Source: an uncultured Pseudomonadales bacterium
GTDB lineage: Bacteria > Patescibacteriota > Microgenomatia > UBA1400 > PJMF01
DNA: 57,944 nucleotides
Reading direction: 5' to 3'
NCBI GenBank assembly: GCA_964648715.1
Contig: CAZYNM010000008.1
Coordinates: 1-57,944 of the forward strand
Part shown: piece by piece, positions 4,781 to 30,882 of the stretch
How positions within the stretch are numbered: position 1 is the first letter of the stretch
Layout: every line of letters starts with the position of its first letter
Program-made: the position numbers and the translations under genes
The notes under the pieces: model-generated
The model's database searches: none
Told to the model about the DNA's origin: nothing
The model's input: only the letters and a program-made list of their open reading frames with translations

Positions 4781-4846
4781 ATACTTCATGTTGTATTTTC
4801 AATACTTGCATTACTACAACATATTGTGGTTAGCTTATGCTTTGAT

Positions 4847-11647: not shown

Positions 11648-14600
11648 ATGGCATTTAGCGAATCACGGCCACAAGTTACCCAAAAGCAAGAACGTCCACG
11701 CTTTGATGATGATCCTATTCGCCGAAGCATACTGTATGAAAAATGTTGCCAAATTCATAAGGCACAACTGGAAAAACTTCCGGACAAAAAAGCCAAAGCA
11801 CACTATCTTGCAAGTCACATTGATAAATCCTTCTTTGAAGTTGTGACCGGGCAGTTTGAAAAAGCACTGGGAGAGTGGTGGAGTGAAGACTTGATTCGTT
11901 TCTCAGCACTCAGTGATGAAGTTGTCAAAGAAATAACAGGTGATGTGTGGGAAGGAGCATGCCTGTGTATTGATAGTTTTCTCGAAAAAAATAAGCTGTT
12001 TACACAGCGAGACTTATCTTCAGCAATGTTTGTCAACGACATGCAAGAACGACGGCGTACAACGAGCATTGATGGTGTAGACATTATGCTCACCAGTGAA
12101 CGTGAGCTTTCTGCGATACGATATCAACTGACACTCCTTCGTATCCAAACATTAGAAAATGGTGCGAGCATCTCTACCGCAGACATGGAGCATACTGTAC
12201 AAAATGCTTTCCTTTTTTCGCAGCTTGAAAGAGATGAACCGGAGGGTTTATCAAGGCTCACTTTCCTGGTGAGAGAGATGCGCAGTGTTTTTCCTATGCA
12301 ACCAATCTGTCGGTATGTGTTCAATGAAAATAAAGACCTTTTGGAAGCAACAGAAACAGAAAAACTCATGAAGCTCAAGGGGATCTGGAAAAATGTTTTT
12401 TCTCTTTTTTTGGAAGTTGCTGCCCGCAAAGAGCTTACTGTCCACCCTTTAGGAAGAAGTTCGGCAGAAGCAGCAACACGTAAAGTAGGGCCAAATATAC
12501 GTAATTTTATTGATCAGCGTTCACATCAAGAAGTAGATCGTGCTGATTCATTGCTTGAGTCGCAATATGCTGGTCAAAAGCAGCAACTTCAGAAAGCAGC
12601 TAACTTGGCAATTATGGAATATTATGACAGGTTTCCTGCACTCCATGAGTTGCGGACAGTTTTTTCAAAGAGTGCCATTGACACCTTTATCAATACACTG
12701 CGTTTTGAGATTGCCACTCGTACTCGAGATAAACAGCAACTCAGTTCATTTGATATTCTTTATATGACTGAAACCGCAGAAGCACTTTTTGGTATAGAGA
12801 TGTTACAACATCTTTTTGGAAATGAGCATATTTCCAAAAACCCACCCATTGTTCGCCTTACACTATTATTCTATGTGTGCATGGGGCAAAATGGTTTTAG
12901 TTTTGGCAATGCCCGGCCACTTATTCAACAATGGGAACAGTTTATTCGACCCCATTTGACTGAGTATAAGGATACAAGCCCACCGTACCAAGAAAAAAGA
13001 ACTGGCACAGGACCACTCTACGACTTTAGGGAAAAAAAGTACGAGAAGGGATACCAAAGAGCACGTGACCGTTGGCAAAACAACGTTGCACTGCTCGAGT
13101 CAAAAGACTGCATCCGCAATGAAGAAGCAGAGGAATTTAAACAATTATTTGATAGTGCTATAACGCAACTTGCACCAAGCACAGATAAACTCACGACACT
13201 TATTGAGCTACAAAAAGCCTACCCAGCTGAAAGAAAAAAGCTGATAGCTGCGCTTGCTCTGCTGACAAGTGCAGTGGGCGGTAGTATTTTCCTGTGGCAA
13301 CTTGATATTAAGAGTGACTATCTTTTGTTGCAGTATAGGGTACTAGCCGTGATTGCTGCAGCATTTCTCCCTTCTTTTTACTTGCTCAATACCTATAGGC
13401 GGCAACGTCTTATTGCGAGATATGGAAGCGTCCGTTCGCTGCTTACCATATCTCCAGTACAACTTAACTCACTTGAGTATGCGCTGGAAGATATGCCGCG
13501 CAAAGATAAAAAAGGATTACGCAAGCTTGCGAGTGTTTCTGCTGCAACCCTGGCGATCTTACTCATGCTGCAGCTGGACATATCAATGCCAGGTAGCCTA
13601 GATACCTTACGCACTCAGGTTTCCCAGGGTGTCAGTGCTGCCAGCAGGGTAGGAGTTGGAGCCGCTGCCGCATTCTTTTCAGATGTTGGTGAGCTTGCTA
13701 GTTACCTTACAGATTACTTGATTGCACTGCTTCCAACACAAGAAACATCTCCATCTGAGAAACTGACAAATAATGAAAAAAACAACAAAATGGAGGATGC
13801 ACAGTTTACGACCTATGGTTCCCATAGTGACCTCACGTGGATCGACGAGACTGGTTACCTGAAGCCAGAGAGCGCATCTTATCAGCCTATTAGACTAGAG
13901 GAAGAAAGTAAGTTGCCAGTCATGCTACTTGATTCGGTAACGGCACTGCGTTCAGAAGTACTCAGCCAGGCACAACAAGGCAGGATAGTTCGCCTTAATC
14001 TTGATAAAGAGAACGCAGCATATGGTATTCCTCAAGGATATCGACCCAGTATGATTCTCTCCACACGAAGTGATGTTGTGCAGACGACTTCATCAGAGAT
14101 TGGTCTTGCGGTTAGTTTTTCTTCAGGCAGAAGTGGAAGAACAGCACTTGTGTATGAAGAAGATCCTAGTGGAATGACACAGCCACAGTCCTTTGTAGAC
14201 CTTCCTGACACTGATCTTATTCCAGATCAAAATTGGCAAAAAGGTGCACTCAAGTGGTTGCAACCACTTGAGGAAGAAGCGCGTAAATTACGTAAAAATG
14301 GTGCTACAGCTAGACAGATATTGGATCATCTAAAAGATGGTATCAGCCATCTTGGCATATCATATGGATATGAAGAGTATCTATCAACTGCAGATGTCCC
14401 AGAAGAGGAACTCATAGACCTATTTGCATTTGATAGCCAGGGAAAACCAACTAAGAAAGAATGGATCTGTACGCAATTTTCTCATGCACTCTATATACTT
14501 GCACGAGAAGCAGGACTTGATGTCCGTATCGCCAATGGAGCAATGCAGCTTACAGATGACATAAATGGTGGATATAAAGCCAGAAGACATCGCTTCCTTT

Positions 14601-15454
14601 TGTTTCGCGAGAAGCCAGGTGATGCATATGCATTTTTTGAAGCGACACTTCCGTCACTGACGGAGCCACTATTGCAGGAACCACAAGATGTTATTGATAC
14701 GCAGACAGAAGAAGACCCGCTTCTAAATGAAGCAAGAACAGAACAAAATATGCATCTTGCAGTGAACTGCCTTGCAGGCTTGGGTGCATTCTTGGCAATA
14801 AGTGGGATGGCTTTCTATGGGGTACGCAGGTACCGTTCCTACAAACAGGATCAGAGAGATGAAGCGTACTCAAACAGGTTTGATCGTTTGTCTAAAAAAC
14901 TCAAAGAGAATCCTCCTGAAGTACTCACTGCAGCATGGAGAATTATTTTTGCCTGTACCATTCAAAGTCCACTTAATTCTATCTATCGCGGCTCTCATGT
15001 AGCTCCTCGCCCTGTCAACTTTAAACCTGGAAAAGCGATGAATTATGAAGGTGCTGCATATCGCTGGTTTGACTTTCAAAAAGGAAGCGTTGTGCCATCC
15101 CAGGAAGAAGCAGCGCGAATTGTTGATCTGGCGCTCCACAGTTTTTCTGAACGTAGGTATACAACTCATGGCGAAGACCTTGCACTCTCCCAGCATATTG
15201 ATGAAATGTATGCTGCATTTGGTGCCGTGGCCAGTGAAGAAAGATTTGCCCGTGCTTCTAGAAGAAAGCGTTTTGTTAAAAGGATGATGAAACAGTTTTG
15301 GCAGACAAACATGGGTAGTCCTGTAACAGTCACACAGAGTCTTCAGATTGCTTCAGCTGCCATTACCAAGCAGATTGAAATGGAAGAATCGCTCTCTACT
15401 AAAGTGAAGATGCAAGAAGTTCGCAGTATCATTGAACTCTTACTTCCTGAATAA
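11648..15454 (+). CDS. Large multi-pass membrane protein with transglutaminase-like domain
   Basis: About 4 hydrophobic segments; ICTQFSHALYILAREAGLDVRIANG...H...EAT. Confidence 0.6.
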   Translation: MAFSESRPQVTQKQERPRFDDDPIRRSILYEKCCQIHKAQLEKLPDKKAKAHYLASHIDKSFFEVVTGQFEKALGEWWSEDLIRFSALSDEVVKEITGDVWEGACLCIDSFLEKNKLFTQRDLSSAMFVNDMQERRRTTSIDGVDIMLTSERELSAIRYQLTLLRIQTLENGASISTADMEHTVQNAFLFSQLERDEPEGLSRLTFLVREMRSVFPMQPICRYVFNENKDLLEATETEKLMKLKGIWKNVFSLFLEVAARKELTVHPLGRSSAEAATRKVGPNIRNFIDQRSHQEVDRADSLLESQYAGQKQQLQKAANLAIMEYYDRFPALHELRTVFSKSAIDTFINTLRFEIATRTRDKQQLSSFDILYMTETAEALFGIEMLQHLFGNEHISKNPPIVRLTLLFYVCMGQNGFSFGNARPLIQQWEQFIRPHLTEYKDTSPPYQEKRTGTGPLYDFREKKYEKGYQRARDRWQNNVALLESKDCIRNEEAEEFKQLFDSAITQLAPSTDKLTTLIELQKAYPAERKKLIAALALLTSAVGGSIFLWQLDIKSDYLLLQYRVLAVIAAAFLPSFYLLNTYRRQRLIARYGSVRSLLTISPVQLNSLEYALEDMPRKDKKGLRKLASVSAATLAILLMLQLDISMPGSLDTLRTQVSQGVSAASRVGVGAAAAFFSDVGELASYLTDYLIALLPTQETSPSEKLTNNEKNNKMEDAQFTTYGSHSDLTWIDETGYLKPESASYQPIRLEEESKLPVMLLDSVTALRSEVLSQAQQGRIVRLNLDKENAAYGIPQGYRPSMILSTRSDVVQTTSSEIGLAVSFSSGRSGRTALVYEEDPSGMTQPQSFVDLPDTDLIPDQNWQKGALKWLQPLEEEARKLRKNGATARQILDHLKDGISHLGISYGYEEYLSTADVPEEELIDLFAFDSQGKPTKKEWICTQFSHALYILAREAGLDVRIANGAMQLTDDINGGYKARRHRFLLFREKPGDAYAFFEATLPSLTEPLLQEPQDVIDTQTEEDPLLNEARTEQNMHLAVNCLAGLGAFLAISGMAFYGVRRYRSYKQDQRDEAYSNRFDRLSKKLKENPPEVLTAAWRIIFACTIQSPLNSIYRGSHVAPRPVNFKPGKAMNYEGAAYRWFDFQKGSVVPSQEEAARIVDLALHSFSERRYTTHGEDLALSQHIDEMYAAFGAVASEERFARASRRKRFVKRMMKQFWQTNMGSPVTVTQSLQIASAAITKQIEMEESLSTKVKMQEVRSIIELLLPE

Positions 15455-15484: not shown

Positions 15485-16966
15485 ATGCAGTTATACAACA
15501 CTCTTTCACGCACCATAGAGAAGGTGACAGGCTATTCCTCAAACCATTTGGGTTTGTATGCATGTGGACTAACAGTTTATGATTACACCCATTTGGGGCA
15601 TTTACGTAAATATACTTTTGATGACATCTTGGTGCGTGTACTACGTCATGCAGGCTTTAATGTCAAGTTTGTGCAAAACGTCACTGATGTTGGTCACCTG
15701 GCTTCAGATGCAGACACGGGCGAAGACAAATTAGAAAAGGGTGCTAAAAAATATGGTAAAAGTGTGTGGGATATTGCCCAAGAATTTGAAGACTACTTTT
15801 GGTACAGCATGGAGTTGATGGGCAACCTCAAGCCAGATGTCAGCTGCCGTGCCACTGAGCATATACAGGCACAACTGGCAATGGTGATAGAGCTTGAAAA
15901 AAAAGGCTTCACTTATGTAATTGGTGGTGATGGTGTGTACTTTGACACAAGTAAGTTAGACGATTATGGTAAATTGGCTGGGTTTGATCCCGATGCCTTG
16001 CAAGAGGGCGCACGGGTGGAGCCTGTTGCAGGAAAACGCAATAAAAGTGATTTTGCGTTATGGAAGTTTGAGCGTCCTGGAGAACACAGAGCAATGGTCT
16101 GGGAAAGTCCCTGGCACACGCGCAGTTTTCCTGGGTGGCACATTGAGTGTAGTGCAATGGCTATGCAGTACCTTGGCGCACAGTTTGAGATCCATACCGG
16201 AGGAATAGATCACATTCCAGTTCACCATACCAATGAGATTGCGCAGGCTGAAGCAGCCAGTGGTAAAAAACCCTTTGTAAAGTACTGGGTACACCACAAC
16301 TTCTTGAGAGTAGACGGTGAAAAAATGAGCAAATCACTGGGTAATTTCTTTACCATTGATGATGTTATAAAAAAAGGTTTTAGCCCTCGTGCGCTCCGTT
16401 TGTTGTTCCTTACCACTCACTATCGAAGCCAAATGAACTTTACTTGGGATACCCTGGAAGGTATGCAAAAGACGTATATACGTTTTCTCCAGCAAGTTGT
16501 TTCGTGCAAAAATGAAGCGGGAAGAACAGTCTTAAGTACAGAAAAATTAGAAAAAGTAGATACCTATAGAGCACGCTTTTATGCAGCGTTAGAACATGAT
16601 CTTAACACAGCTGAAGCAGTACCTATTGTGTGGGAAGTGATGAAGTCTAATATTCCTGGAGGTGATAAATACGACCTTATCGTAGAGTTTGATGAAGTGC
16701 TGGGGTTGGGTGTGCGTACTGCCGAAAAATATTTGACAGAGATCACATCACAACAAACAGCTACGACTTTTGCAGCCACTGATACACAGCTTCCAGCAGC
16801 AGTCCGCCAACTTTTGGCAGAACGTGCTGCAGCCAGGACTGCACGAGATTGGAATCAGTCAGACGAAAAGAGAGATGCACTCATCGCCCACGGGTACCGT
16901 GTTATTGATAAAACAAGTGAAGAACAGCTTGTCGTTCGGCTCACTGAAAACACGAACCCTGCATAA
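15485..16966 (+). CDS. cysS: Cysteinyl-tRNA synthetase
   Basis: [29 protein letters not shown]. Confidence 0.98.
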
Positions 16967-16982
16967 GGTATACTATCTGTAT

Positions 16983-17192
16983 ATGGCAAAGCACGATCCA
17001 CTCAACATACGAACACTGCGTATCCCCAAAAAAGGCAAAAAATGCGCAGGTGTGTGTGCCGCTTGGGCACATTTCTTTGGAATTGATGTTACTATTGTTC
17101 GCATAGTATGGGTACTTTTACTGGTCCCGGGGGGACTACCCGGTCTCATACCATATTTGGTGTGTTGGGCATTGATTCCTGATGAGGAGTAA
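16983..17192 (+). CDS. PspC domain protein
   Basis: AGVCAAWAHFFGID..VRI..V...Y..W..IP. Confidence 0.85.
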   Translation: MAKHDPLNIRTLRIPKKGKKCAGVCAAWAHFFGIDVTIVRIVWVLLLVPGGLPGLIPYLVCWALIPDEE

Positions 17193-17199
17193 GTCAAAC

Positions 17200-18693
17200 A
17201 TGATTGATAAAAAAGCACGCACACGAGTAGTTGTGGTAGGTGGCGGAGTTGGTGGACTTGCCACGGCTGCGCTACTAGCTAAGGATGGATACGCTGTTAC
17301 CGTGCTTGAAAAAAACAAACAGCTTGGTGGAAGAGCGCAAGTGCTCACAAAAGATGGGTTCACGTTTGATATGGGACCATCCTGGTACATGATGCCTGAT
17401 GTGTTTGAGCGTTTTTTTGCAGAGTTTGGTAAAAAACCAGAGGACTATCTTACATTACTTGCCCTTGATCCACAGTATCGTGTGCACTTTGCTGATGGCA
17501 CCAAGGTAGACATGCATCTGGATATGAGAAAGAACAAAGCAGTGTTTGAAAACATTGAACGTGGCTCGGGGATTAAGCTTGATGCATATCTTGCAGAAGC
17601 GAAGCAAAAATATGAGTTATCACTGCGAACCGTTTTGTATAAAAATTGTGATACGATTTTTGACTTTTTTAGCTGGGATTTACTTAAGAATAGTCGTTTG
17701 CTTGAACCGCTCACATCAATGCAAACCTATATTAGTCGTTTTTTTGTTTCAGAAAAACTCCAACAAATTATTCAATTTACGCTTGTCTTTTTGGGAGGTG
17801 CACCCCACAACATGCCAGCGCTGTACAGTTTGATTTCCTATGTTGATTTTAAGTTGCATACCTTTTATCCCAAAGGTGGTATGTATGCACTCATTCTTGC
17901 ACTCAAAAAGCTTGGCAGCGAATATGGAGTAGAGTATGTGACCAATACCCCCGTTCTTCAGCTTGTTACCAAAGATGGCATGATCACAGAAGTTATCACC
18001 CAGAAAAAAACATACATAGCAGATGTTGTAGTGGCCAATGCAGACTATGCCCACGTTGAGTCCTTGTTCAGTGATCCAGCCCAGCGTATGTACAGTGATG
18101 TCTATTGGCAGAAAAAAACTGTCGCACCATCGGCATTCCTTATGTATCTAGGTATTCAAGGTAAAGTGCCACAGTTGGCGCATCACTCCATTTATTACGG
18201 CAAAGATTGGCAAGAACATTTTAGAGCACTATTTGAAGCACCACACTGGCCACAAGAACCCGCAGTTTACCTTAATGTACCTAGTATCACCGATCCCGGC
18301 ATGGCTCCCAAAGGACATACCGGCGTCATGGTCTTGGTACCCATAGCTAGTGGTCTATCTGAGACAGAGTTGTGGAAAGAAACCTATGGAGATTTCATTA
18401 TTTCATATTTGGACAAAGCACTTAAGCTCAATTTGAAGGATCGTATTGTGAGTAAAACCCTTTTCTCTGTGACAGATTTTGAGAAGGTCTATAACAGTTT
18501 GCGCGGCAATGCCTTGGGCGGGCTTGCGCATACATTGTTTCAAACAGGACCTTTCCGTCCACCAAATGCTCATGCCAATATTAAAAACCTCTTTTTTGCT
18601 GGGGCAAACACTGTACCAGGAATTGGGGTGCCACCGGCGGTGATATCGGGTCATTTGGCTCGTGAACGTGTGCGTTCCTGCCGTTTGCCATAA
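17200..18693 (+). CDS. crtI: Phytoene desaturase family
   Basis: GGGVGGL, GGRA, FDMGPSW, YPKGG, GANTVPGIGVP. Confidence 0.92.
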   Translation: MIDKKARTRVVVVGGGVGGLATAALLAKDGYAVTVLEKNKQLGGRAQVLTKDGFTFDMGPSWYMMPDVFERFFAEFGKKPEDYLTLLALDPQYRVHFADGTKVDMHLDMRKNKAVFENIERGSGIKLDAYLAEAKQKYELSLRTVLYKNCDTIFDFFSWDLLKNSRLLEPLTSMQTYISRFFVSEKLQQIIQFTLVFLGGAPHNMPALYSLISYVDFKLHTFYPKGGMYALILALKKLGSEYGVEYVTNTPVLQLVTKDGMITEVITQKKTYIADVVVANADYAHVESLFSDPAQRMYSDVYWQKKTVAPSAFLMYLGIQGKVPQLAHHSIYYGKDWQEHFRALFEAPHWPQEPAVYLNVPSITDPGMAPKGHTGVMVLVPIASGLSETELWKETYGDFIISYLDKALKLNLKDRIVSKTLFSVTDFEKVYNSLRGNALGGLAHTLFQTGPFRPPNAHANIKNLFFAGANTVPGIGVPPAVISGHLARERVRSCRLP

Positions 18694-19400
18694 TGGGCAA
18701 AGGTATAACGAATGTTGCTTGTTTGGTGCAGCTGCTGTGTCACAAAAAGGTAACTAATATACAGATATGTGGCCAGTGTTGATAGGATCCCATCCTGTCT
18801 AAATCGCCTATCTGACACATGTGCTACTGTAGAAAGTTGCCTAAATCCAGCGGCTTTTCCCGCACGGAAAATACAGTCAAGGTCATCTGTGAGGATAGTT
18901 GTTGTAAACCCCCCAATAGACCTCAAAGACGAGCGAGTAATCCAGAATGCTGAGCCTGCACCAGCTGGGTAATAGTGCTGCCCACACCAAAAAACTGCAT
19001 TGAAAAATGTATAGATATACTTAATACACACTGAAGTTGTGTCGGGCACATACCGTGGACAAGCACAGCCAACTGCTGTGTGTGTTATCTCACGGAGGCT
19101 TTGTTCTGCAAAGTGAGGGTCGAGCCATACATCAGCATCCAAAAAAAGGATGTACTGTGTCTGTACCGTATCAGCACCCAACTGACGTTGTGCCCCCACA
19201 CCTGGTTTTGTGGTTATAACTGTGACTGGTAATTGATCAGAGTATGATAAGGCAATCTTTCGTGTATCATCTGTGGAACTGCCATCAATAATAAACACAG
19301 CATGGGGAAGGTGCGTCTGTCTGCACAGTGATTTAAGCAACTTTCCGAGCAGTCGCGCCTCATTGAGAGTAGGTATGCAAATACTGTAGGACGGTTTCAT
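18651..19400 (-). CDS. Family 2 glycosyltransferase (probable carotenoid glycosyltransferase)
   Basis: IPTLNE, DGSSTD, FLDAD, SDRRF; start overlaps the elongase stop. Confidence 0.8.
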   Translation of the reverse strand: MKPSYSICIPTLNEARLLGKLLKSLCRQTHLPHAVFIIDGSSTDDTRKIALSYSDQLPVTVITTKPGVGAQRQLGADTVQTQYILFLDADVWLDPHFAEQSLREITHTAVGCACPRYVPDTTSVCIKYIYTFFNAVFWCGQHYYPAGAGSAFWITRSSLRSIGGFTTTILTDDLDCIFRAGKAAGFRQLSTVAHVSDRRFRQDGILSTLATYLYISYLFVTQQLHQTSNIRYTFAHYGKRQERTRSRAK

Positions 19401-20239
19401 AGAGAGAGAACAAGATACCAAAACCCCATGAATCCAAGTACTGCATTAATAAAGGGAAGTCTCCAGTACCACCGTTCAATAACAGAGAGTGGCGCAGCGC
19501 GAAGCATAAAAATGATCGTTGGATAGACCAAAAATACCATGCCAACCCATCCAAGTATATACCAGAAAAGTAGTGCAGATATAAGCCAATTAGCACCCAC
19601 AAACACGAGGGATTTGTGATGTCCCAGTACTACCGCAGTAGTTTGTATGCCCGCATGTTCGTCACTTTTAATGTCGGGCAGAGCAGAAAATGTATGCAAA
19701 GCTGCTGTCCAACAGACAGCAGCAACAACCACCAGGGTGGAAGGAAGCATACCCGTACTCTCAATATATGCGACAAAACCAGGAAGTGCATACAAAACAT
19801 TGGAGTACGCATCCCACAATGGTTGGGCTTTAAAGCGGAAAGGGGGAGCACTATACCAAAAACTGAGAGCAACAAAAAAGGCAAAAAAGAGTCGTGCTAC
19901 TGGCTGTGCTAGCAGAAAGAAGATCCACACGGCGCAAACAAAGACTAGGAAAGATCCAAGTAATACGTGTTTGTCTTCGGTCTGTTTAAGCAGATGCTCG
20001 TGAGATGTTTTCTTTGGATTAAGAAGATCTGTATCTCTATCATAATAATCGTTTATTCCGTACAAGAAAAAATTCATGGGAAAAGATAAAAAAAACAAAA
20101 AGAGTACATTTTTAATATCTTGCAATACATGTATGCCAAGGCCAGTGGCTGCAAATCCTATCAGCGCCGGACCAACAAGATAGAGCCAAAAGCGTGGACG
20201 ACTGATTGCAAGGATCGTGGTAAGAGATGAACTCTGCAT
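19397..20239 (-). CDS. UbiA-family prenyltransferase, lycopene elongase (LyeJ/CrtEb)-like
   Basis: SRPRFWLYLVGP, YGINDYYD..D..NP.K, PPFRFK, PDIKSD; crt context. Confidence 0.8.
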   Translation of the reverse strand: MQSSSLTTILAISRPRFWLYLVGPALIGFAATGLGIHVLQDIKNVLFLFFLSFPMNFFLYGINDYYDRDTDLLNPKKTSHEHLLKQTEDKHVLLGSFLVFVCAVWIFFLLAQPVARLFFAFFVALSFWYSAPPFRFKAQPLWDAYSNVLYALPGFVAYIESTGMLPSTLVVVAAVCWTAALHTFSALPDIKSDEHAGIQTTAVVLGHHKSLVFVGANWLISALLFWYILGWVGMVFLVYPTIIFMLRAAPLSVIERWYWRLPFINAVLGFMGFWYLVLSL

Positions 20240-20270
20240 TTTACGTATTCTACTGTATACTATCCCCACC

Positions 20271-21053
20271 ATGGCAACGGTGGATTGGCAGAGAGCTATC
20301 TTTAAAAGAGCAAGCGTTACGTACTATACTGCTTCACTTTTTTTCCCTCAGGATGTTCAACAATTGGTGTTTACCTTGTATGCATTTGTGCGTACTGTTG
20401 ATGATTTTGTAGATGCCACGCCACAAGATGCAAAAGGCTTTTATGCGTTTGTAAAGGCATACTACCAACAGCTTCATGGTAAACGGCAATCGGGCAACGC
20501 CATCATTCACAGCTTTATACATTTACAGCAACAGTATCGATTCAAACAAGTTTGGGTAGATGCATTTTTGACCGCAATGGAGCTGGATTTGTACAAAAAG
20601 GTATATCGCACAGAACAAGAGCTAGAGCACTATATGTATGGCTCTGCTGAAGTGATTGGCTGTATGCTGTGTGCCATTTTTGGAACACCAGCTTCGCTGT
20701 ACCCAGCGGCTCGTATGCTGGGACGTACCATGCAATATGCCAACTTTTTACGTGACATTGCCGAAGACAAACAGCTTGGACGTTCTTATTTGTCTGCTGA
20801 AAGTGACACACTTGATGCGGTATACTCACGTGCGTGTGTGCGCTATGCTGAATGGAGTTCTCGTGCGCACCTTGGGATACAAAAACTTCCCTGGGAACTG
20901 CGCATACCGGTAGCAACAGCTACAGAAATGTATGATTGGACAGTGACACAAATACAAAAAAACCCTCAGGTCGTATGGAAGAAAAAAATAAAACCACAGC
21001 CACTCAGAGTCTTCATGACAGCAGTGAAGTTGCTGGTGCAGTCCAGCATTTGA
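20271..21053 (+). CDS. crtB: Phytoene synthase
   Basis: S.TYY.A, YAFVR..DDFVD, LEHYMYGSAEVIG, QYANFLRDIAED..LGRSY. Confidence 0.92.
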   Translation: MATVDWQRAIFKRASVTYYTASLFFPQDVQQLVFTLYAFVRTVDDFVDATPQDAKGFYAFVKAYYQQLHGKRQSGNAIIHSFIHLQQQYRFKQVWVDAFLTAMELDLYKKVYRTEQELEHYMYGSAEVIGCMLCAIFGTPASLYPAARMLGRTMQYANFLRDIAEDKQLGRSYLSAESDTLDAVYSRACVRYAEWSSRAHLGIQKLPWELRIPVATATEMYDWTVTQIQKNPQVVWKKKIKPQPLRVFMTAVKLLVQSSI

Positions 21054-22102
21054 GGCAAATTGGACCTGAACTAGCCGCACGTATTACTGCAGTGCTTACA
21101 GATTTCTCGCGTATAAATAGTCGTTATCCTCTTGATGCAGAAGTGTTTTCTTATTTAAGTACGTACTGTGTGTCAGGAAAGCTGTTCCGTGGTTCACTTT
21201 TTTTGGCTATGTGTGAACTCCTTAAAAAGGAGAATGAGTTTACTCTTGATAGGTTGATGCCAGTTGCTGTAGCACTAGAGTTGTATGGATCTGGCATCCT
21301 GATTCAGGACGATGTGATGGACCAAGATGGACTGCGTAGAGGAAACAAAACAGTTCACACATGGCTTGTGGAATATGCACAGAAGCACAGCATTCGTGAT
21401 GCACAACGGTGGGGAGAAAGTGTGGCAACGTGTTTTGCTGACACTTTGTTTTTTGTGGCAGGAGAATGCCTGACAACTGCACAACTTGATCAATCACATG
21501 TACAAAAACTACAAACGTATTCTTTCCGTGAACTTGCCCTCTTAGGTATGGCGCAAGCAGAAGACTTGCGGCAAGCCGGTGCGCCCGGCATTCCATCCCA
21601 TCAAGAAATACTGGATATGTTTGTGGGTAAAACAGGACGCTATACAGCTCGGTGGCCGCTTGCCCTTGCTGGGCTTGTGTCTGATGTCACTCCAGAAATC
21701 CAACATGCATTGGAGGCAGTGGGTGAGTCTATAGGTGTGGTGTACCAAATGCGTGATGATTATTTGGGTCTTTTTGGAGATGCGCAGGTGACAGGAAAAA
21801 ATACCACCAGTGATATTCGTGAAGGAAAGAAGACTCTATATGCAGCAACTTTCTTTGCTTGTGCCAGAGGGGAGATGAAAGAGCGTGCCCAGCGCATCTT
21901 TGCTAGCAAAAATGCGTCAGAACAGGACTGTGCATGGTTTAAAGAAGCGCTTACCACTACTGGTAGTAGTAAAGAGGTAGATGTACTGCTTGAGCAGTAC
22001 GTTGCAGAAATCTTGACGCAAATAGATCAGCTAGAACTTCCCATGGCAGTTAAGAGCTTACTTAAAGGTATCGCTATGTACAGTGCAAGGAGAGATAAAT
22101 GA
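20936..22102 (+). CDS. crtE: Polyprenyl (GGPP) synthase; true start possibly TTG at 21050
   Basis: GKLFR, QDDVMD....RRG, GKT, YQMRDD, SDIREGKKT. Confidence 0.85.
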   Translation: MDSDTNTKKPSGRMEEKNKTTATQSLHDSSEVAGAVQHLRQIGPELAARITAVLTDFSRINSRYPLDAEVFSYLSTYCVSGKLFRGSLFLAMCELLKKENEFTLDRLMPVAVALELYGSGILIQDDVMDQDGLRRGNKTVHTWLVEYAQKHSIRDAQRWGESVATCFADTLFFVAGECLTTAQLDQSHVQKLQTYSFRELALLGMAQAEDLRQAGAPGIPSHQEILDMFVGKTGRYTARWPLALAGLVSDVTPEIQHALEAVGESIGVVYQMRDDYLGLFGDAQVTGKNTTSDIREGKKTLYAATFFACARGEMKERAQRIFASKNASEQDCAWFKEALTTTGSSKEVDVLLEQYVAEILTQIDQLELPMAVKSLLKGIAMYSARRDK

Positions 22103-22806
22103 AGGTAATGGCTACTCTTGCAGAGATACGTGCATCAATGGCGACATTAGCACAACCACCCAAGGATCAAGATTTTATTCGCCGATACCTTGGAACACCA
22201 CGAGAAGTGCGTGGAGTGAAAACAGCATATATTCGTCAGCTGGCCAGTCGACTAGCCAAAGAAAAAGGAAATGACACACCATTTATGGTGGACATTCTTG
22301 ATATGTTGTACGCAAGTCCCACGTATGAAGAGCGAGCATTGGCTGGCTATCTCCTCACGCAGTGTAAAACTATGCGTACTGGTTTACCACTGCAGCGACT
22401 TGTCCCCTGGATTGGCGCGCAGACTGGATGGGCAGAAATAGACACCACGTGCCAATCGCTCATGACAGCTTCAGAAGTTTCAAACCGCTGGCAAGAGTTT
22501 GTTGATCTTATTACCCATCTATCTACAAGTCATAAGATCCAGTTGCGACGTGCCAGTTTAGTGCTGCTGGTAAAGCCACTGAGAGAAAGCAGTTCTCCCG
22601 AACTTGCTGAACTTGCCTGTGCGACTGTTGACCAGCTCAAAAAGGAAAAAGATAGTCTAATTACCAAAGCAATTTCGTGGACGCTGCGGAGCATGGTTTT
22701 GTTACATACAGCACATCTCACCAGTTACCTGAAAACAAACAGTTCCAGTTTGCCAAAAATTGCGGTAAGAGAAGTAACGCGCAAGCTTGCAACAGGGAAG
22801 AAGTAG
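22099..22806 (+). CDS. DNA alkylation repair (AlkD-like HEAT-repeat) protein
   Basis: GVK, WAEID, RRASLV, KAISWTLR. Confidence 0.8.
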   Translation: MKVMATLAEIRASMATLAQPPKDQDFIRRYLGTPREVRGVKTAYIRQLASRLAKEKGNDTPFMVDILDMLYASPTYEERALAGYLLTQCKTMRTGLPLQRLVPWIGAQTGWAEIDTTCQSLMTASEVSNRWQEFVDLITHLSTSHKIQLRRASLVLLVKPLRESSSPELAELACATVDQLKKEKDSLITKAISWTLRSMVLLHTAHLTSYLKTNSSSLPKIAVREVTRKLATGKK

Positions 22807-22808
22807 GT

Positions 22809-24323
22809 ATGCCAACATATGAACATCCTTATCGCGAGGAGCAAGAAAACCCACTATTTTCTGCCAAAGATTTCCACACAGGTGTTGCTGTGGGGACAGA
22901 TGTTGTGTCGCAAAGACTCAAAGCAGAAATAGAAGCAGCTGGTACCATTCCCTACAGTCGCTTTATGCAGGTGGCATGTACTGAGCATTTTTATGGCTCG
23001 GGTGTTGTGCGTTTTGATCAGAAAGAAGACTTCACCACCATCCCCGAACAGCATCCATTTTTTGGTGCATACTGCGCAAGCGTGCTGCATGACGTATGGA
23101 TATCATTAGGTAAACCTGAACAGTTTCAAGTAGTTGAGCAAGGCCCTGGACAAGGTGTTCTCGCTGCCAATCTCTTACACTATACACGCGAGCTATTCCC
23201 CAATTTTTTTGCAGCACTCTCATACACACTGGTTGAAGTGAGTCATCCTTTGGCGGTGCGTCAAAAAGAGAGACTTGCCAGCTACAGTGATAAAGTAACT
23301 TGGCTTATTGGTTCGGCCACCGAAATTGAACTTCCTACCACCGTGGGTGCGTTCATCTCCAATGAACTGCCTGATGCATTTCCGGTGGAGCGAGTCGCAC
23401 GAATCAATAGGAGAGTTAGGCAAAAGTACATCACCATCGAAAATGGTATGTGGGTTGAGGTATGGAGTGAGCCCACACCAGAAGTTACACAGTTTATTGA
23501 GAAGTTTGCACTCACTATTGAAGAAGAAAACGAGACAGCTATCAACCTCCCAAGTGTTGTCTGGCAACAGAAAATGCAGGCGGCACTGCAAGCAGGCGCA
23601 ATTTTTACTGTCGATTATGGTGGTCAAGGTAAGAGAGCTACAGGAAGCTACCTGGCAGTTCGTTATTATGGCAAAGATGCTACTCACTCCATACGTGGCG
23701 CAGCGGTAAGCGATGCTTTAGCAAACTATGCTGCACCAGGGCAGTACGACATGACCGCAGATGTAGATTTTGCGGTACTGGAAAAAATTGCTCGCAGTGA
23801 GGGTCTGGAAGTAGCGGAAAGTGCATCCGCAGAGAGGTTTTTTGAACGTCTGGGTGTGTTTAAGAGTATTGAGCCTTATATTGAGCAACTCAAGAGTGCA
23901 CACACATGGCAAGAATATGTGAGGTTGTTTGGTGAAGTAGAGGATGCGTATACAAGCCTCTATGGTTTCTTTTCTTGCTCTCAATTCTACGCACATCTCA
24001 TAACCAAAAACTGCACACTCATGAGACAAAACTACAGCAATGAAAACCAAGAATTTCCTGTTGAACTGGAAGACTTTTTTGTTCAACTTCCTGTTCCTTT
24101 GGAAGAAAAATACTACACGGTGGATAGAACACACGTTGCTGGTTTTGATGCAGAATCTGGTAAACCCACCAAGATGGCCCGTGAGACTGGTGGGTACCTT
24201 CTTGTGCCCCCTGTAGAACTTCAGGGAATGCGTGTCATGAAAAATGATGGAACACTGCTGTATGATTTTACAGATTCAGAAATCTGTGAACAGTTTGTAC
24301 AGCAAAGCGGGTATATACATTGA
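22809..24323 (+). CDS. SAM-dependent methyltransferase, MidA/NDUFAF7 family, with C-terminal extension
   Basis: DFTT.PE, EQGPGQG.LA, SNELPDAFPV, DYG, D.TADVDF. Confidence 0.85.
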   Translation: MPTYEHPYREEQENPLFSAKDFHTGVAVGTDVVSQRLKAEIEAAGTIPYSRFMQVACTEHFYGSGVVRFDQKEDFTTIPEQHPFFGAYCASVLHDVWISLGKPEQFQVVEQGPGQGVLAANLLHYTRELFPNFFAALSYTLVEVSHPLAVRQKERLASYSDKVTWLIGSATEIELPTTVGAFISNELPDAFPVERVARINRRVRQKYITIENGMWVEVWSEPTPEVTQFIEKFALTIEEENETAINLPSVVWQQKMQAALQAGAIFTVDYGGQGKRATGSYLAVRYYGKDATHSIRGAAVSDALANYAAPGQYDMTADVDFAVLEKIARSEGLEVAESASAERFFERLGVFKSIEPYIEQLKSAHTWQEYVRLFGEVEDAYTSLYGFFSCSQFYAHLITKNCTLMRQNYSNENQEFPVELEDFFVQLPVPLEEKYYTVDRTHVAGFDAESGKPTKMARETGGYLLVPPVELQGMRVMKNDGTLLYDFTDSEICEQFVQQSGYIH

Positions 24324-24333
24324 AAGGATAGCT

Positions 24334-25248
24334 ATGACAGTTGGTTTTATAGGTTTGGGAAAAATGGGTAAGAATATGGTGCTTCGACTCCTGGAACAGG
24401 GTGTGCCGGTGGTGGCGTGGAATAGGTCTCCTGAACCACGTGCAGAAGTTGCTTCAGCAGGTGCTCGTGTTACTGAGAGTGTGGCAGAATTGGTGGCGGA
24501 GCTTCCGTCTCCCAAAGTTGTATGGTTAATGCTCCCTGCTGGAGACGTGACAGATGCCATGATAACTGAAGTTGCTGCGCACTTAACCACGGGTGACACA
24601 CTTATTGATGGTGCAAACTCTTTCTACAAAGATACGCTCAGACGCGCACAGGTGATGACGGAGAAAGGCATTCGTTTTATTGATGCACCTATTTCTGGTG
24701 GTCCCGGTGGCGCACGGACAGGTGCCTGTATGTTGGTGGGCAGCACTGCAACAGCAGTGCACGATTTAATGCCACTTTTTTCTGCATTAACAGCACCACA
24801 AGCTCTTGGTTTTTTCGGTAGTGTGGGGAGTGGTCATTACGCCAAAATGATTCACAACGGCATTGAGTACGGCATGATGCAAGCTATTGCGGAAGGGGCT
24901 GCTCTGCTCAAGCATGGGCCATTTTCCTATGACATGGCAGAGGTCTTTCGTGTATACAACATTAAGACTGTGATTGAATCAAGGCTAGTGGGTTGGACAC
25001 AAGAAGCACTCGTAGAAGATCCCGAACTCACTCAAACAGCTGCCACTATCGGGGCACTTGGTGAAGGCGCATGGACCGCCGTAACTGCGCAAGAACTACA
25101 TATTGCAGCTCCAGTTATTACCGCGTCAGTGCAAGTACGCACTGAATCAAGTAGTGTTGCCGAAAGTTCACCAGAAGGGTATAGAAATAAAGTGGTTTCG
25201 GCACAGCGCGGTAAGTTTGGCGGTCATGCCGTCAAGAAAACTGCATAA
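24334..25248 (+). CDS. gnd: 6-phosphogluconate dehydrogenase (short type)
   Basis: GFIGLGKMG, DGANS, SGG..GA, KMIHNGIEYG, FGGH. Confidence 0.95.
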   Translation: MTVGFIGLGKMGKNMVLRLLEQGVPVVAWNRSPEPRAEVASAGARVTESVAELVAELPSPKVVWLMLPAGDVTDAMITEVAAHLTTGDTLIDGANSFYKDTLRRAQVMTEKGIRFIDAPISGGPGGARTGACMLVGSTATAVHDLMPLFSALTAPQALGFFGSVGSGHYAKMIHNGIEYGMMQAIAEGAALLKHGPFSYDMAEVFRVYNIKTVIESRLVGWTQEALVEDPELTQTAATIGALGEGAWTAVTAQELHIAAPVITASVQVRTESSSVAESSPEGYRNKVVSAQRGKFGGHAVKKTA

Positions 25249-27532: not shown

Positions 27533-28399
27533 ATGCGTAAACTCCATCTCACCACAAGTATTAATGCTCCAGTGGAAAAAGTCTGGAATGCAGTTGTCTC
27601 CAAAGACCTTTATGAACAGTGGACCGCGGCTTTTATGCCTGGTTCGACTTTTGAAGGCACGTGGGAGCAAGGATCAGAAATGCGGTTTCTAGGCCCTGGC
27701 GAAACTGGCGCCAGAGATGGTATGTTCAGCATGATTGCTGAAGCACGAAAAAATGAATTTATCTCTATTAAACACTTGGGTTTAATCACTAGTGGAGTGG
27801 TGGATACCACCAGCCCTGCAGTCAAAGAATGGACGCCATCTTTTGAAAACTATACTTTCACATCAACTCCAAGCGGTACAGAGTTTACCTTGGATATGGA
27901 TGTGGCTGATAATTTCTATGACATGTTTATGCAGATGTGGCCACATGCGCTTGAGCGTCTTAAAGAGGTAGTAGAAACCGGTAAAAGTACATGGATTGAT
28001 ATTGGTACCTTTATTGCTGCACCACTCAGTAAAGTTTGGGAGTACTACACTAAGCCAGAGCACATTGTGCAATGGGGTTTTGCTAGTGATGATTGGGAGG
28101 CGCCAGCAGCAGAAAATGATCTACGTGTAGGCGGGAGATTTAAAACAGTGATGGCTGCCAAAGACAAGAGTGCCCAATTTGACTTTACTGGTGTCTACAC
28201 AGCAGTAAAGCCTCAAGAACGTATTGAGTACACCATAGATGATGGGCGCAAAGTACGTGTCAGTTTCTCTGATCATGGCTCACAAGTGCAAGTTGCAGCG
28301 TCGTTTCAAGCAGAATCAGAAAACTCACTTGAACAACAACAAACAGGATGGCAAGCAATTCTTGATAACTTCAAAAAATATGTTGAGAAAGGAACCTAA
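27533..28399 (+). CDS. Tandem SRPBCC (AHSA1-like) domain protein
   Basis: Two repeats of I.AP..KVW...; ENDLRVGGRF, GWQAILDNFK. Confidence 0.88.
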   Translation: MRKLHLTTSINAPVEKVWNAVVSKDLYEQWTAAFMPGSTFEGTWEQGSEMRFLGPGETGARDGMFSMIAEARKNEFISIKHLGLITSGVVDTTSPAVKEWTPSFENYTFTSTPSGTEFTLDMDVADNFYDMFMQMWPHALERLKEVVETGKSTWIDIGTFIAAPLSKVWEYYTKPEHIVQWGFASDDWEAPAAENDLRVGGRFKTVMAAKDKSAQFDFTGVYTAVKPQERIEYTIDDGRKVRVSFSDHGSQVQVAASFQAESENSLEQQQTGWQAILDNFKKYVEKGT

Positions 28400-28665
28400 T
28401 GGCTATGCTGCACACACTATCCGGCAATTGTGAGAGTTGCCTCATGCCGTTTTCCAAAGATCCCAAAGGTGCTGCACGAGAAAGTGAAAAGTACTGTTCC
28501 TATTGTTTTACCAATGGAAAGCTCTGTTATCCCGGGAATGATTTGGGAGAATTTAGGAAAGCAATGGTTGCTGCGATCGTGGCACGTGGTGAAAGTAGGT
28601 TGAAGGCTTGGATTTTTGCCTTTATGGCAGGATTCGCACCACGCTGGAATAAAAAACATACGTAA
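28399..28665 (+). CDS. Small zinc-ribbon protein
   Basis: CESCLMP...YCSYCF. Confidence 0.75.
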   Translation: MAMLHTLSGNCESCLMPFSKDPKGAARESEKYCSYCFTNGKLCYPGNDLGEFRKAMVAAIVARGESRLKAWIFAFMAGFAPRWNKKHT

Positions 28666-28702
28666 GAGTAGTTCGTACGAATAAATTTTGAAAAGGAACA
28701 TC

Positions 28703-29590
28703 ATGCAGAAAATCGCCCTACATTTTTGGTTTGATACCCAAGCAAAAGCAGCGGCAGAAGTGTATACCAAGCTATTCGCCAACTCTCGTATCATCAGTGT
28801 CAATTCTATCTCTGATACACCATCTGGCACCGTAGAAATTGTCTCGCTGCAGATGGCAGGACAAGACTGTATGTTTATGTCAGCTGGGCCACTTTTTAAA
28901 ATTAATCCAAGCATTTCTCTCATGGTGGTCTGCGAAAACGAAGCAGAAGTAGATACATACTGGGCTGAGCTTTCCAAGGATGGTAAGGTCCTCATGGAAC
29001 TGAGCGAGTATCCCTTTGCCAAAAAATATGGATGGGTGCAGGATAGATTTGGTGTGTCATGGCAAATTGGCTACATGGAAGGTAGTGAAGTAACACAAAA
29101 AATCATGCCAGCACTCATGTACACAGGTGCGGTAGCTGGCAAAGCCGAAGAAGCAATGCAGTTCTATACCAGTCTCTTCAAAGATGGTGTGATTGATTTT
29201 ACTGCACGGTATGAAGCAGGTGAGTCTCCAGTAGATAAACCAGGCACTATTAAGCATGCAGTCTTCAAACTGGCTGGACAAAAATTTGTAGCAATGGATA
29301 GCGCGCACGACCATAAGTTTGGTTTCAATGAAGCTGTTTCACTCATGGTTTACTGTGAGACCCAAGCAGAAATTGACTTTCTCTGGGAAAAACTCAGTGC
29401 AGTTCCAGAATCAGAACAGTGCGGCTGGCTCAAAGACAAGTACGGTGTGTCTTGGCAGATTGTGCCTGTGCAGATGAATGAGATGATGGGCAAGGGCACA
29501 CCAGAACAACAACAGCGTGTCACCGCTGCATTCATGCAGATGAAAAAATTTGACATTGCCACACTCCAAAAAGCATTTGATGGTGAGTAG
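28703..29590 (+). CDS. Tandem VOC/PhnB-like protein
   Basis: Two repeats of ...DKYGVSWQI; QAFMQMKK-like C-terminus. Confidence 0.9.
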   Translation: MQKIALHFWFDTQAKAAAEVYTKLFANSRIISVNSISDTPSGTVEIVSLQMAGQDCMFMSAGPLFKINPSISLMVVCENEAEVDTYWAELSKDGKVLMELSEYPFAKKYGWVQDRFGVSWQIGYMEGSEVTQKIMPALMYTGAVAGKAEEAMQFYTSLFKDGVIDFTARYEAGESPVDKPGTIKHAVFKLAGQKFVAMDSAHDHKFGFNEAVSLMVYCETQAEIDFLWEKLSAVPESEQCGWLKDKYGVSWQIVPVQMNEMMGKGTPEQQQRVTAAFMQMKKFDIATLQKAFDGE

Positions 29591-29593
29591 AGT

Positions 29594-29935
29594 ATGACTA
29601 CACTTTTGCTTATCGTACTCATTGGCTTGGTAATTTCGTTTTTTGCTACGCAAAATACCGATCCTATATCATTGCAGTTTTTCATATATCAAATAACCGA
29701 AGTTCCTAAATATGTCGTAGTAGTGGGAGCATTTTTGCTGGGGCTTTTCTTGTCGTGGAGTATCAATCTTATCAATAACATTACAACTGGTTTTGTGATG
29801 CGAAAAAAAGATACAAAGATCACTGATTTTAAGAGAGAAAACGCCGAGCTTGTGAAGCGCGTGCATCAACTAGAGCTAGAAAATGCAAAGCTAAAAGAAC
29901 GTTACAATGAACCAGAAGATGAAAAGTCATTGTGA
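29594..29935 (+). CDS. LapA-family (DUF1049) membrane protein
   Basis: TM-FATQN-TM then coiled coil. Confidence 0.75.
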   Translation: MTTLLLIVLIGLVISFFATQNTDPISLQFFIYQITEVPKYVVVVGAFLLGLFLSWSINLINNITTGFVMRKKDTKITDFKRENAELVKRVHQLELENAKLKERYNEPEDEKSL

Positions 29936-30390
29936 AAAAAATGCTTGCTAAAATCTGGAAAGCCCTTTCATTTCCCAAGTTACTTCAGTTGAGCATAATG
30001 CGTTTGGTACAGTCACAATTTTTGGTGGGTGTTACCGGCATCATTTTTAATGAAAAAAATGAAGTACTGCTTTTTAAGCACACATACCGGCAAACTCCCT
30101 GGAGCCTTCCGGGTGGGTACTTGCAGTCCAAAGAACATCCCTTTGAAGGTATGGAACGAGAGATAGCAGAAGAATCGGGGTTTGTGGTGAGCATAGATGA
30201 ACAATTAAAAGTGCGGACAGACAGAGAAACATCCCGTCTAGATATCGTGCTGGTGGGACGATTTATGGGGGGAGAGTTTACGCCATCCAGTGAAGTATCA
30301 GAGTATGGTTTTTTTACCATGGAGACACTGCCACTTATTGCACGCAACCAGCTTTTTCTGATACAACAAGCATTGAGTGAAAAAATATGA
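29932..30390 (+). CDS. NUDIX hydrolase
   Basis: LPGG......E....REIAEESG Nudix box. Confidence 0.9.
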   Translation: MKKMLAKIWKALSFPKLLQLSIMRLVQSQFLVGVTGIIFNEKNEVLLFKHTYRQTPWSLPGGYLQSKEHPFEGMEREIAEESGFVVSIDEQLKVRTDRETSRLDIVLVGRFMGGEFTPSSEVSEYGFFTMETLPLIARNQLFLIQQALSEKI

Positions 30391-30878
30391 AACTCGCCAT
30401 CATGTCTGACGCTCATGATAACTGGGCACATCTAGAAACCGCAATTCAGCTAGCCAATGAACAGGGCTGTGAAGTTTTGCTTTTTGCAGGTGACTTGATT
30501 GCGCCACCTGGTCTTGCTGTACTTGAAAAATTTAATGGCAACGTCAAGCTAGTATGGGGAAACAACGAGGGTGAAAAGGTAGGCATTGCACTCAAGTGCG
30601 CGAAGAGTGAGAAGATTGAGCTGTGCGGAGATGTATTTGAGGGTGTGCTTGGTGGAGTGCGCATTTTCATGAATCACTATCCACGGATCGTGGAGCTCGC
30701 CTCACAATTTGGTGAGTTTGATCTGTGCATTTTTGGACATACGCATGAGTATATTCAAACCAAGGTGGGCGAGTGCTCTCTTGTGAATCCAGGTGAGATT
30801 CAGGGCTATATCACTGGTGAGGCTGGCTTTGTGGTGTGGGATACGCAGATGCGAAGTGGGGAGCGGGTGAGGGTGTAA
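30387..30878 (+). CDS. YfcE/MJ0936-type metallophosphoesterase
   Basis: SDAHDN, AGD, GNNE, H, FGHTH, NPG. Confidence 0.9.
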   Translation: MKLAIMSDAHDNWAHLETAIQLANEQGCEVLLFAGDLIAPPGLAVLEKFNGNVKLVWGNNEGEKVGIALKCAKSEKIELCGDVFEGVLGGVRIFMNHYPRIVELASQFGEFDLCIFGHTHEYIQTKVGECSLVNPGEIQGYITGEAGFVVWDTQMRSGERVRV

Positions 30879-30882
30879 ATAT

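Follow-up and report, generated by a model that had tools for sequence, protein, structure and literature searches.

In the haloarchaea Haloarcula japonica and Halobacterium salinarum, the bacterioruberin genes crtD (c0507), lyeJ (c0506) and cruF (c0505) are found side by side, and this arrangement offers a first point of comparison for a cluster of five carotenoid genes at positions 17182-22102 of contig CAZYNM010000008.1 (assembly GCA_964648715.1), a stretch of DNA whose full length of 58 kb is called the window below. The window genes encode a CrtI/CrtD-type desaturase, a family 2 glycosyltransferase (GT2), a UbiA-family prenyltransferase of the LyeJ type, a phytoene synthase (CrtB) and a CrtE-like polyprenyl-diphosphate synthase. 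As in the haloarchaea, a LyeJ protein recognized by model NF009516 is encoded beside a desaturase that appears to be of the NF058655 type, and the haloarchaeal and window LyeJ proteins have their Asp-rich motifs and an N-terminal SRPRFW motif in common. In contrast with the haloarchaeal cluster, a GT2 gene follows lyeJ, no CruF is encoded in the window, crtB and crtE belong to the cluster, the host is a bacterium of the Candidate Phyla Radiation (CPR), and protein identity amounts to only 41-50%. On balance it appears probable that this locus is a functional five-gene module of a Patescibacteria (CPR) genome that makes a glycosylated, bisanhydrobacterioruberin-type C45/C50 carotenoid, a product that is a prediction only.

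Carotenoid genes of this kind have been described in three other settings. The presence of lyeJ, crtD and cruF in Patescibacteria of Lake Baikal was reported in 2023, and a role in the membrane for cold adaptation was proposed (Haro-Moreno et al., PMC9948471). The Baikal set matches the window in phylum, in its lyeJ and crtD-type genes and in the proposed membrane role; it contains cruF and its genes are dispersed, whereas those of the window lie close together in a single cluster that includes a coupled GT2 gene, with no CruF in the window. A term search of the retrieved passages of that report found no mention of a glycosyltransferase. The actinobacterial crtE-crtB-crtI-crtYe/Yf-crtEb pathway, e.g., in Corynebacterium glutamicum, leads to decaprenoxanthin or sarcinaxanthin glucosides (PMC3598387). 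It resembles the predicted window pathway in the C5 elongation of lycopene by a UbiA-family enzyme and in its glycosylated C50 end products, and differs from it in that the window LyeJ reaches only 99 bits on NF009608, that no CrtYe/Yf is found in the window and that the window CrtI is of another subtype. Finally, the extended data of a 2025 paper (PMC12137139) list putative lyeJ, crtD and carotenoid glycosyltransferase ('crtQ?') genes for 'Ca. Kariarchaeum pelagium', an Asgard archaeon. The likeness lies in the pairing of a LyeJ-type gene with a putative carotenoid glycosyltransferase, likewise uncharacterised, and the host differs in being an archaeon with rhodopsins.

Carotenoid glycosyltransferases of the CruC/CruG kind are GT2 enzymes that act on hydroxyls made by 1,2-hydratases and work with an acyltransferase partner. 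CruC and CruD of Chlorobaculum and CruG of cyanobacteria were reportedly described by Maresca and Bryant in 2006. The window is similar in that a GT2 is encoded together with a putative hydroxyl-creating enzyme, and one relative (L087) also has a gene for a PlsC-type acyltransferase. Unlike CruG, the window GT2 is not a member of that family (27.6 bits on NF045692, cut-off 600), it has about 250 residues against the 386 positions of the model, and the window has no acyltransferase. Already known, then, are lyeJ, crtD and cruF in Patescibacteria, lyeJ with a glycosyltransferase in Asgard archaea and glycosylated C50 carotenoids in actinobacteria. The literature searched describes neither a lyeJ-GT2 module that recurs, is translationally coupled and lacks CruF, nor the fusions of this GT2 with isopentenyl diphosphate (IPP) isomerase; the recurrent module is an uncharacterised variant, of moderate novelty.

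The five genes of the window are intact and occupy 4.9 kb, with the Pfam families Amino_oxidase, Glycos_transf_2, UbiA, SQS_PSY and polyprenyl_synt in gene order. The crtI/crtD-type gene (17200-18693, plus strand) lies in an open reading frame (ORF) that opens at 17182 and encodes 497 residues from the ATG at 17200, with PF01593 and NAD_binding_8 matches. Its 3' end overlaps by 43 nt with that of the convergent gene for the GT2, a predicted carotenoid glycosyltransferase (18651-19400, minus strand; 249 residues; PF00535, 87 bits). Upstream of the latter, lyeJ (19397-20239, minus strand, alternative ATG at 20272; 280 residues, PF01040) encodes a predicted lycopene elongase/1,2-hydratase. Its TGA and the ATG of the GT2 gene share an ATGA overlap, which makes translational coupling plausible; a 4-nt overlap is also present in the relative L001. 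Divergent from lyeJ, with start regions that abut or overlap, is crtB (20271-21053, plus strand; ORF opening with a GTG at 20217; 260 residues from the ATG; PF00494, SQS_PSY, 153 bits). The TGA of crtB is overlapped, as TTGA, by a TTG at 21050, which is the likeliest start of the crtE-like gene (21050-22102, plus strand; PF00348, 139.5 bits; alternative starts ATG 20975 and TTG 20936); homologs of CrtE align with the long ORF from residues 36-44 onward.

The same gene order is found in L001, a Logan contig, with 77-91% protein identity to the window, and the arrangement crtE<crtB<>lyeJ-GT2><crtI is also present in the more distant L087, L088, L006 and L092, the last from a 1.37-Mb contig. Comparison of the window with L001 yielded ratios of nonsynonymous to synonymous substitution (dN/dS) of 0.04 for crtI, 0.10 for GT2, 0.135 for UbiA, 0.08 for crtB and 0.10 for crtE, without stops, indicating purifying selection on all five genes. 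A chance pattern of ORFs is excluded by synteny of the cluster across several independent contigs and by dN/dS values of 0.04-0.14. A scan of 16700-24500 for promoters and terminators returned counts equal to those of shuffled sequence and is therefore uninformative. An earlier interpretation of this DNA, the sequence-only reading, had seen in it crtE, crtB and crtI giving lycopene, a LyeJ-type UbiA protein, a GT2 translationally coupled to it and neither a cyclase nor a CruF-type hydratase in the window. All three crt genes were recovered intact, and the single desaturase probably does more than form lycopene; the coupled pairing recurs widely, and profile and query searches of the 58 kb bore out the absence of CruF and cyclase (see below). 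At the level of sequence, then, the reading is supported by each of the tests made.

The UbiA-family protein contains AISRPRFWLYLVGP, and the motif SRPRFWLYLxGP that had been quoted for it is present as ISRPRFWLYLVGP. When 34 members of the family, haloarchaeal ones among them, are aligned, the SRPRF core (S13-F17) is at least 90% conserved, and the window protein retains all 32 of the 32 invariant columns, among them N63, D64, D67, D71, D189 and D193, so that both Asp motifs of the UbiA fold, NDxxDxxxD and DxxxD, are intact. It passes NCBIfam model NF009516/PRK12875 with 279.4 bits (cut-off 205), while the sister models NF010119 and NF009608, the latter of the CrtEb type with a cut-off of 217, give 138 and 99 bits, and no chlorophyll-synthase, UbiA or MqnP model gives more than 45. 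What these hidden Markov models (HMMs) stand for was calibrated by scoring reference proteins from known cluster contexts. Haloarchaeal LyeJ proteins from crtI/D-lyeJ-cruF clusters (L029, L030) reached 451-464 bits on NF009516. The CrtEb-type reference was a prenyltransferase from an Arthrobacter plasmid, one of six matches in a plasmid search, whose gene is directly 3' of an ORF with a lycopene-cyclase domain in a crtE-crtB-crtI-crtY-type cluster, i.e., in the CrtEb arrangement; it scored 469 bits on NF009608 against 134 on NF009516. Over its full length, the window protein shares 41-42% identity with haloarchaeal LyeJ, and over part of it 32% with the CrtEb-type protein. Many of its homologs carry the Joint Genome Institute (JGI) label 'lycopene elongase/hydratase (dihydrobisanhydrobacterioruberin-forming)'. 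The genes crtI/D, crtB and crtE are located within 3 kb of lyeJ, and a like association is seen in most of 80 lyeJ loci of other genomes. Because of the HMM scores, the reference comparison, the identities, the JGI names and the retained invariant residues, the protein is classified by its sequence as LyeJ-type, and as neither CrtEb-type nor a quinone prenyltransferase.

The phylogenetic comparison with LyeJ and CrtEb that the sequence-only reading had suggested succeeded in part. In a neighbor-joining tree of 114 UbiA-family proteins (200 bootstraps, rooted with E. coli UbiA), shallow clades uniting the window with L001 and P0003, and L006 with L088 and L092, are supported at 100%, but the split between LyeJ and CrtEb is unresolved at depth, and the single CrtEb sequence and one paralog attach as long branches within the radiation. 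Given these long branches and deep support below 40%, the separation of LyeJ from CrtEb is taken from the HMM scores and synteny rather than from the tree.

On NF058655, 'bifunctional phytoene desaturase/3,4-desaturase', the desaturase reaches 629.7 bits, as against 452 on the generic model TIGR02734. Enzymes encoded next to lyeJ in haloarchaea score 750 and 475 on the specific and generic models, and those of Saccharibacteria and Magasanikbacteria 716-738 and 485-514; for the CrtI of the Arthrobacter CrtEb cluster, the order is reversed (453 vs. 553). The window enzyme is 44-50% identical to haloarchaeal CrtI/D. The two enzymes of this type in Haloarcula japonica each catalyze phytoene desaturation as well as 3,4-desaturation (PMC11946383). 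The window desaturase, product of the only crtI-family gene there, resembles the haloarchaeal CrtI/CrtD type in the order of these scores, its 629.7 bits lying just under the NF058655 cut-off of 640; it probably has an activity beyond lycopene formation and may supply both phytoene desaturation and 3,4-desaturation. CrtB is 36-51% identical to the CrtB proteins of other lyeJ clusters.

The link between the GT2 and carotenoids is one of genomic context. Among 14 other loci examined, homologs of the GT2 gene adjoin lyeJ in 13. In the set of 80 lyeJ loci, which come from GTDB species representatives, a gene for a GT2 36-38% identical to that of the window is directly 3' of lyeJ in six: L006, L034 and L042 (Peribacteria), L051 (Roizmanbacteria), L062 (Patescibacteria) and L076. 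The same position is occupied by a homolog in L001, L087, L088 and L092, and in L095 a homolog is encoded beside lyeJ. The family is small: a word-indexed search, whose sensitivity is limited, gave 110 matches at E<=1e-5. About 15 homologs (P0260-P0291; 417-433 residues, 32-40% identity to the window GT2) are fused to a NUDIX domain, which in P0272, the one scanned, passes both models of type-1 IPP isomerase (IDI; 215 bits vs. 127). Two such GT2::IDI fusion genes, L089 8001-9266 and L091 8001-9263, come immediately after lyeJ in operons of the form crtI-crtB-lyeJ; they belong to bacteria outside the CPR, one of which has the label Armatimonadota. The DXD motif of the GT2 (D88-A-D90) is invariant in 53 homologs, and its AlphaFold model (pLDDT 93) has a GT-A fold. 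Taken together, this context would tie the GT2 to the carotenoid pathway.

The position after lyeJ that the GT2 gene holds in the window belongs to cruF in haloarchaeal loci, where cruF is always the next gene, its identity backed by NF041333 (428 bits). Pfam scans of the window ORFs of at least 150 residues detected neither CruF nor a lycopene cyclase, and CruF was not found by tblastn either. A CruF HMM built from 53 genes directly 3' of lyeJ, with bacterial loci as positive controls (E<=1e-69), was run together with CrtYe/Yf queries. In the window, where all stop-to-stop ORFs of 40 or more residues were covered, the best E was about 0.9, and in 13 GT2-type loci with up to 10 kb of flank per side nothing was found (best E 0.39). 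Across the 80 loci, CruF is present in none of the six of GT2 type and in 53 of the 74 others (Fisher p=0.001); with haloarchaea left aside, the counts are 0/6 and 17/38 (p=0.067). Mutual exclusion of GT2 and CruF is supportive but not decisive, and only suggestive without the haloarchaea. The Pfam scans of ORFs of at least 150 residues also detected no enzyme of the mevalonate (MVA) or methylerythritol phosphate (MEP) pathways, no IPP isomerase and no rhodopsin in the window.

The sequences show what the genes are, to which families they belong, that they are coupled and conserved, and that selection on them is purifying; from these families, we infer substrates, chain lengths, the type and position of the sugar and a physiological role as follows. 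CrtE would make geranylgeranyl diphosphate (GGPP), two molecules of which would be joined by CrtB to phytoene. The single CrtI/CrtD-type desaturase would convert phytoene to lycopene, and the later introduction of 3,4 double bonds would probably be its work as well. LyeJ would act at one end of the chain or at both, attaching a C5 unit from dimethylallyl diphosphate (DMAPP) to C-2 and hydrating C-1, so that together LyeJ and CrtI/D would yield bisanhydrobacterioruberin-type C45/C50 diols. The coupled GT2 would then glycosylate the tertiary hydroxyl or hydroxyls newly formed at C-1, a step that may parallel, in its logic and not in its family, that of CruC after a 1,2-hydratase. The predicted product is a bipolar, membrane-spanning carotenoid glycoside that might stiffen or protect the membrane.

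Several findings weigh against this pathway. On the side of the core enzymes, NF009516 is also passed, with 231 bits, by a haloarchaeal plasmid paralog without carotenoid neighbors, and the model is broader than LyeJ function; the window protein is only about 41% identical to characterised LyeJ, so that its activity could be different; and deep nodes of the tree, with less than 40% support, leave LyeJ and CrtEb unresolved. CrtI falls slightly short of the cut-off for the bifunctional enzyme (629.7 vs. 640), and the chain-length class of CrtE and CrtB, C40 or C30, is unproven because both are below cut-off on every NCBIfam equivalog model. A rival idea is that the LyeJ homolog acts differently here, by a single C5 addition, by hydration only or on another polyene or a C30 backbone, and that the product is not a C50 carotenoid. 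The modest identity to haloarchaeal LyeJ and the missing equivalog assignments of CrtB and CrtE speak for it, and no LyeJ homolog of this clade is known to have been characterised. In addition, LyeJ and the GT2 evolve fastest among the proteins of the cluster, with 77-78% identity to L001 where CrtI and CrtB have 89-91%. However, the family-invariant residues are all kept, the score is above the family cut-off, and the crtI/D-crtB-crtE context equals that of LyeJ homologs across archaea and bacteria, which makes such a change of activity improbable. That the UbiA protein might be a quinone or aromatic prenyltransferase of the UbiA/MenA/MqnP type, unrelated to carotenoids, has in its favor the superfamily membership itself and the JGI auto-label '4-hydroxybenzoate polyprenyltransferase' on some homologs. 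Yet it scores 26 bits both on TIGR01474 (cut-off 275) and on the MqnP model (cut-off 375), it is only 25% identical to E. coli UbiA in a partial alignment (E=3e-6), UbiA forms a very long outgroup branch, and quinone-pathway neighbors are absent. The grouping with quinone prenyltransferases that the sequence-only reading had envisaged as an alternative was not found; this identity is effectively refuted by HMM scores and synteny, and its probability is negligible.

On the side of the GT2, the predicted structure resembles generic GT2 structures only (TM-scores 0.6-0.68), no match to a known carotenoid glycosyltransferase model was obtained (CruG, the curated model tested, aligns with the N-terminal 55 residues only), and structure comparison and PDB sequence searches for a hint to the acceptor gave none beyond generic matches. 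The enzyme might then not be a carotenoid enzyme at all, its acceptor being a polyprenyl phosphate or an envelope component and its adjacency to lyeJ incidental, in which case the product would be a non-glycosylated, bisanhydrobacterioruberin-type carotenoid. Among solved structures it is closest to polysaccharide and teichoic-acid GT2 enzymes, dolichyl-phosphate mannose (DPM) synthase is among its sequence matches, and its best NCBIfam match is a non-carotenoid family, TIGR04283, below cut-off; in addition, the gene of a 33%-identical homolog has no carotenoid neighbors within 5 kb, a separate NUDIX gene being kept downstream. Against this, the adjacency to lyeJ persists across many lineages though other genes are rearranged, lyeJ and the GT2 gene overlap at stop and start, fusions to IPP isomerase occur within carotenoid operons, and the family is small and specific, so that an unrelated function is quite unlikely. 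Since the window covers only 58 kb, other parts of the genome may also encode CruF, a further desaturase or an acyltransferase. The pathway could in that case be a complete bacterioruberin pathway, with cruF outside the window and bacterioruberin or monoanhydrobacterioruberin as aglycone, which the GT2 would convert to bacterioruberin glycosides as in Arthrobacter agilis. In the Baikal Saccharibacterium, cruF is far from lyeJ and crtD (PMC9948471), CruF is encoded nearby in several CPR and other lyeJ loci (L002, L008, L040, L053), and bacterioruberin glycosides are known from Arthrobacter (PMC10991996). None of the 13 GT2-type loci has CruF, however, and the GT2 gene takes the cruF position after lyeJ; a complete pathway is unlikely. 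The glycosylated bisanhydrobacterioruberin-type carotenoid is preferred to each of these alternatives.

The host was identified from the genes around the cluster. The cysteinyl-tRNA synthetase (CysRS) encoded next to it has relatives of 65-77% identity; most of those with a name belong to 'Candidatus Pacebacteria' (NCBI phylum Minisyncoccota) or 'Patescibacteria group', and the window CysRS is 71% identical to 'Candidatus Pacebacteria' proteins. The backbone Tmk-RecR-...-CysS-...-polyprenyl synthase-...-YchF is common to the window, to the Pacebacteria metagenome-assembled genome (MAG) GCA_002772705.1 and to a longer ENA contig, at 70-78% identity, and the contig of that MAG and the ENA contig have no crtB, lyeJ, GT2 or crtI. 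In the carotenoid-less Pacebacteria relative, a polyprenyl synthase 36% identical to the window CrtE is encoded in an equivalent neighborhood. From this backbone shared without the carotenoid genes, it follows that the host is a CPR bacterium and that the carotenoid genes are an accessory insert beside a polyprenyl synthase. The single contigs that carry syntenic relatives measure 1.37-1.41 Mb, in keeping with a small genome. The sequence-only reading had also taken the genome to be CPR-like, and in this it was right; it had further called the pathway notable for such a lineage, a claim that is weakened because lyeJ, crtD and cruF and the idea of a membrane role were already published for Patescibacteria in 2023 (PMC9948471).

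Some syntenic contigs carry conflicting NCBI labels, 'Methylococcaceae bacterium' for L006 and 'Vitreimonas sp.' for P0150 (1.41 Mb), and are probably mislabelled MAGs. When 27533-31668 of the window is compared with the flanks of L092 (900-3983), the 3-dmu-9_3-mt gene is 95% and the NUDIX gene 97% identical, whereas identity is 43% for LyeJ, 40% for the GT2, 63% for CrtI and 69% for CysRS. Flanks far more similar than the carotenoid genes indicate a mosaic history or replacement of the cluster. The window NUDIX gene (29932-30390) was considered as an IPP isomerase and rejected: it matches no IDI model and is 28% identical to the fusion IDI domain (E=0.03).

Directly 5' of crtI, a 69-residue membrane protein with a PspC domain is encoded (16983-17192, plus strand); its gene ends 8 nt before the ATG at 17200, is kept at the equivalent position in L001 and may be co-transcribed with crtI. 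On the other side, a PF08713 'DNA alkylation repair' (HEAT-like) gene (22099-22806, plus strand) starts on the crtE stop with an ATGA overlap, and it has the same place after crtE in L001 and L086, though not in L088 or L092. In relatives, other genes accompany the cluster. In L087, whose contig carries a LyeJ 54% identical to that of the window (P0003), the PlsC-type gene (4652-5371, minus strand; PF01553) is directly beside crtI and is, by analogy with CruD, a candidate carotenoid-glycoside acyltransferase. A gene for a GLF protein, similar to UDP-galactopyranose mutase, is near the carotenoid cluster in L088 (1859-3013) and L092 (6005-7141, convergent with crtE); that it hints at the sugar donor of the GT2 is purely speculative. 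In L095 (5692-8382), where the GT2 is 34% identical, the GT2 gene is followed by genes for a uracil-DNA glycosylase, for a protein with a VTT domain and for a DNA photolyase, a surrounding that fits a context of light or UV protection.

Farther along the window, a 261-residue protein (30883-31668, plus strand) has a C-terminal TIR domain of the CAP12/Pycsar type (PF10137) and matches PADLOC TIR effectors and the candidate single-gene system PDC-S35. No gene with a TIR domain (PF10137) is listed for the relatives' loci examined, the corresponding interval of L092 containing an unannotated gene of 130 residues, and the window gene may be an accessory defense gene. Two large ORFs, 11648-15454 (plus strand, 1268 residues) and 46161-48248 (minus strand, 695 residues), match nothing in Pfam or PADLOC; the 1268-residue protein has hydrophobic segments and is 65% conserved in L001.

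A wider proposal can be put forward tentatively, as a possibility with less than even prospects: that the small GT2 represents a new family, of carotenoid 1-O-glycosyltransferases, which takes the place of CruF as the partner of LyeJ; that CPR bacteria, thought to scavenge their membrane lipids, themselves make a membrane-spanning, doubly glycosylated C50 carotenoid as a structural component of the membrane, a bolaamphiphilic 'rivet'; and that the lyeJ-GT2 module, sometimes fused to IPP isomerase, marks glycosylated C45/C50 pigments of a class so far unrecognised, which gene transfer has carried into CPR, Armatimonadota-like and other bacteria. If the predicted pathway is true, some CPR bacteria, with their tiny genomes and a presumed dependence on hosts for lipids, would make for themselves a rigid, bipolar, glycolipid-like pigment, which would bear on how CPR membranes are stabilized or protected when exposed to cold, light or oxidative stress. 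A small, widespread GT2 family tied to LyeJ and sometimes fused to IPP isomerase would gain a function, and C50 carotenoid chemistry would reach past haloarchaea and actinobacteria.

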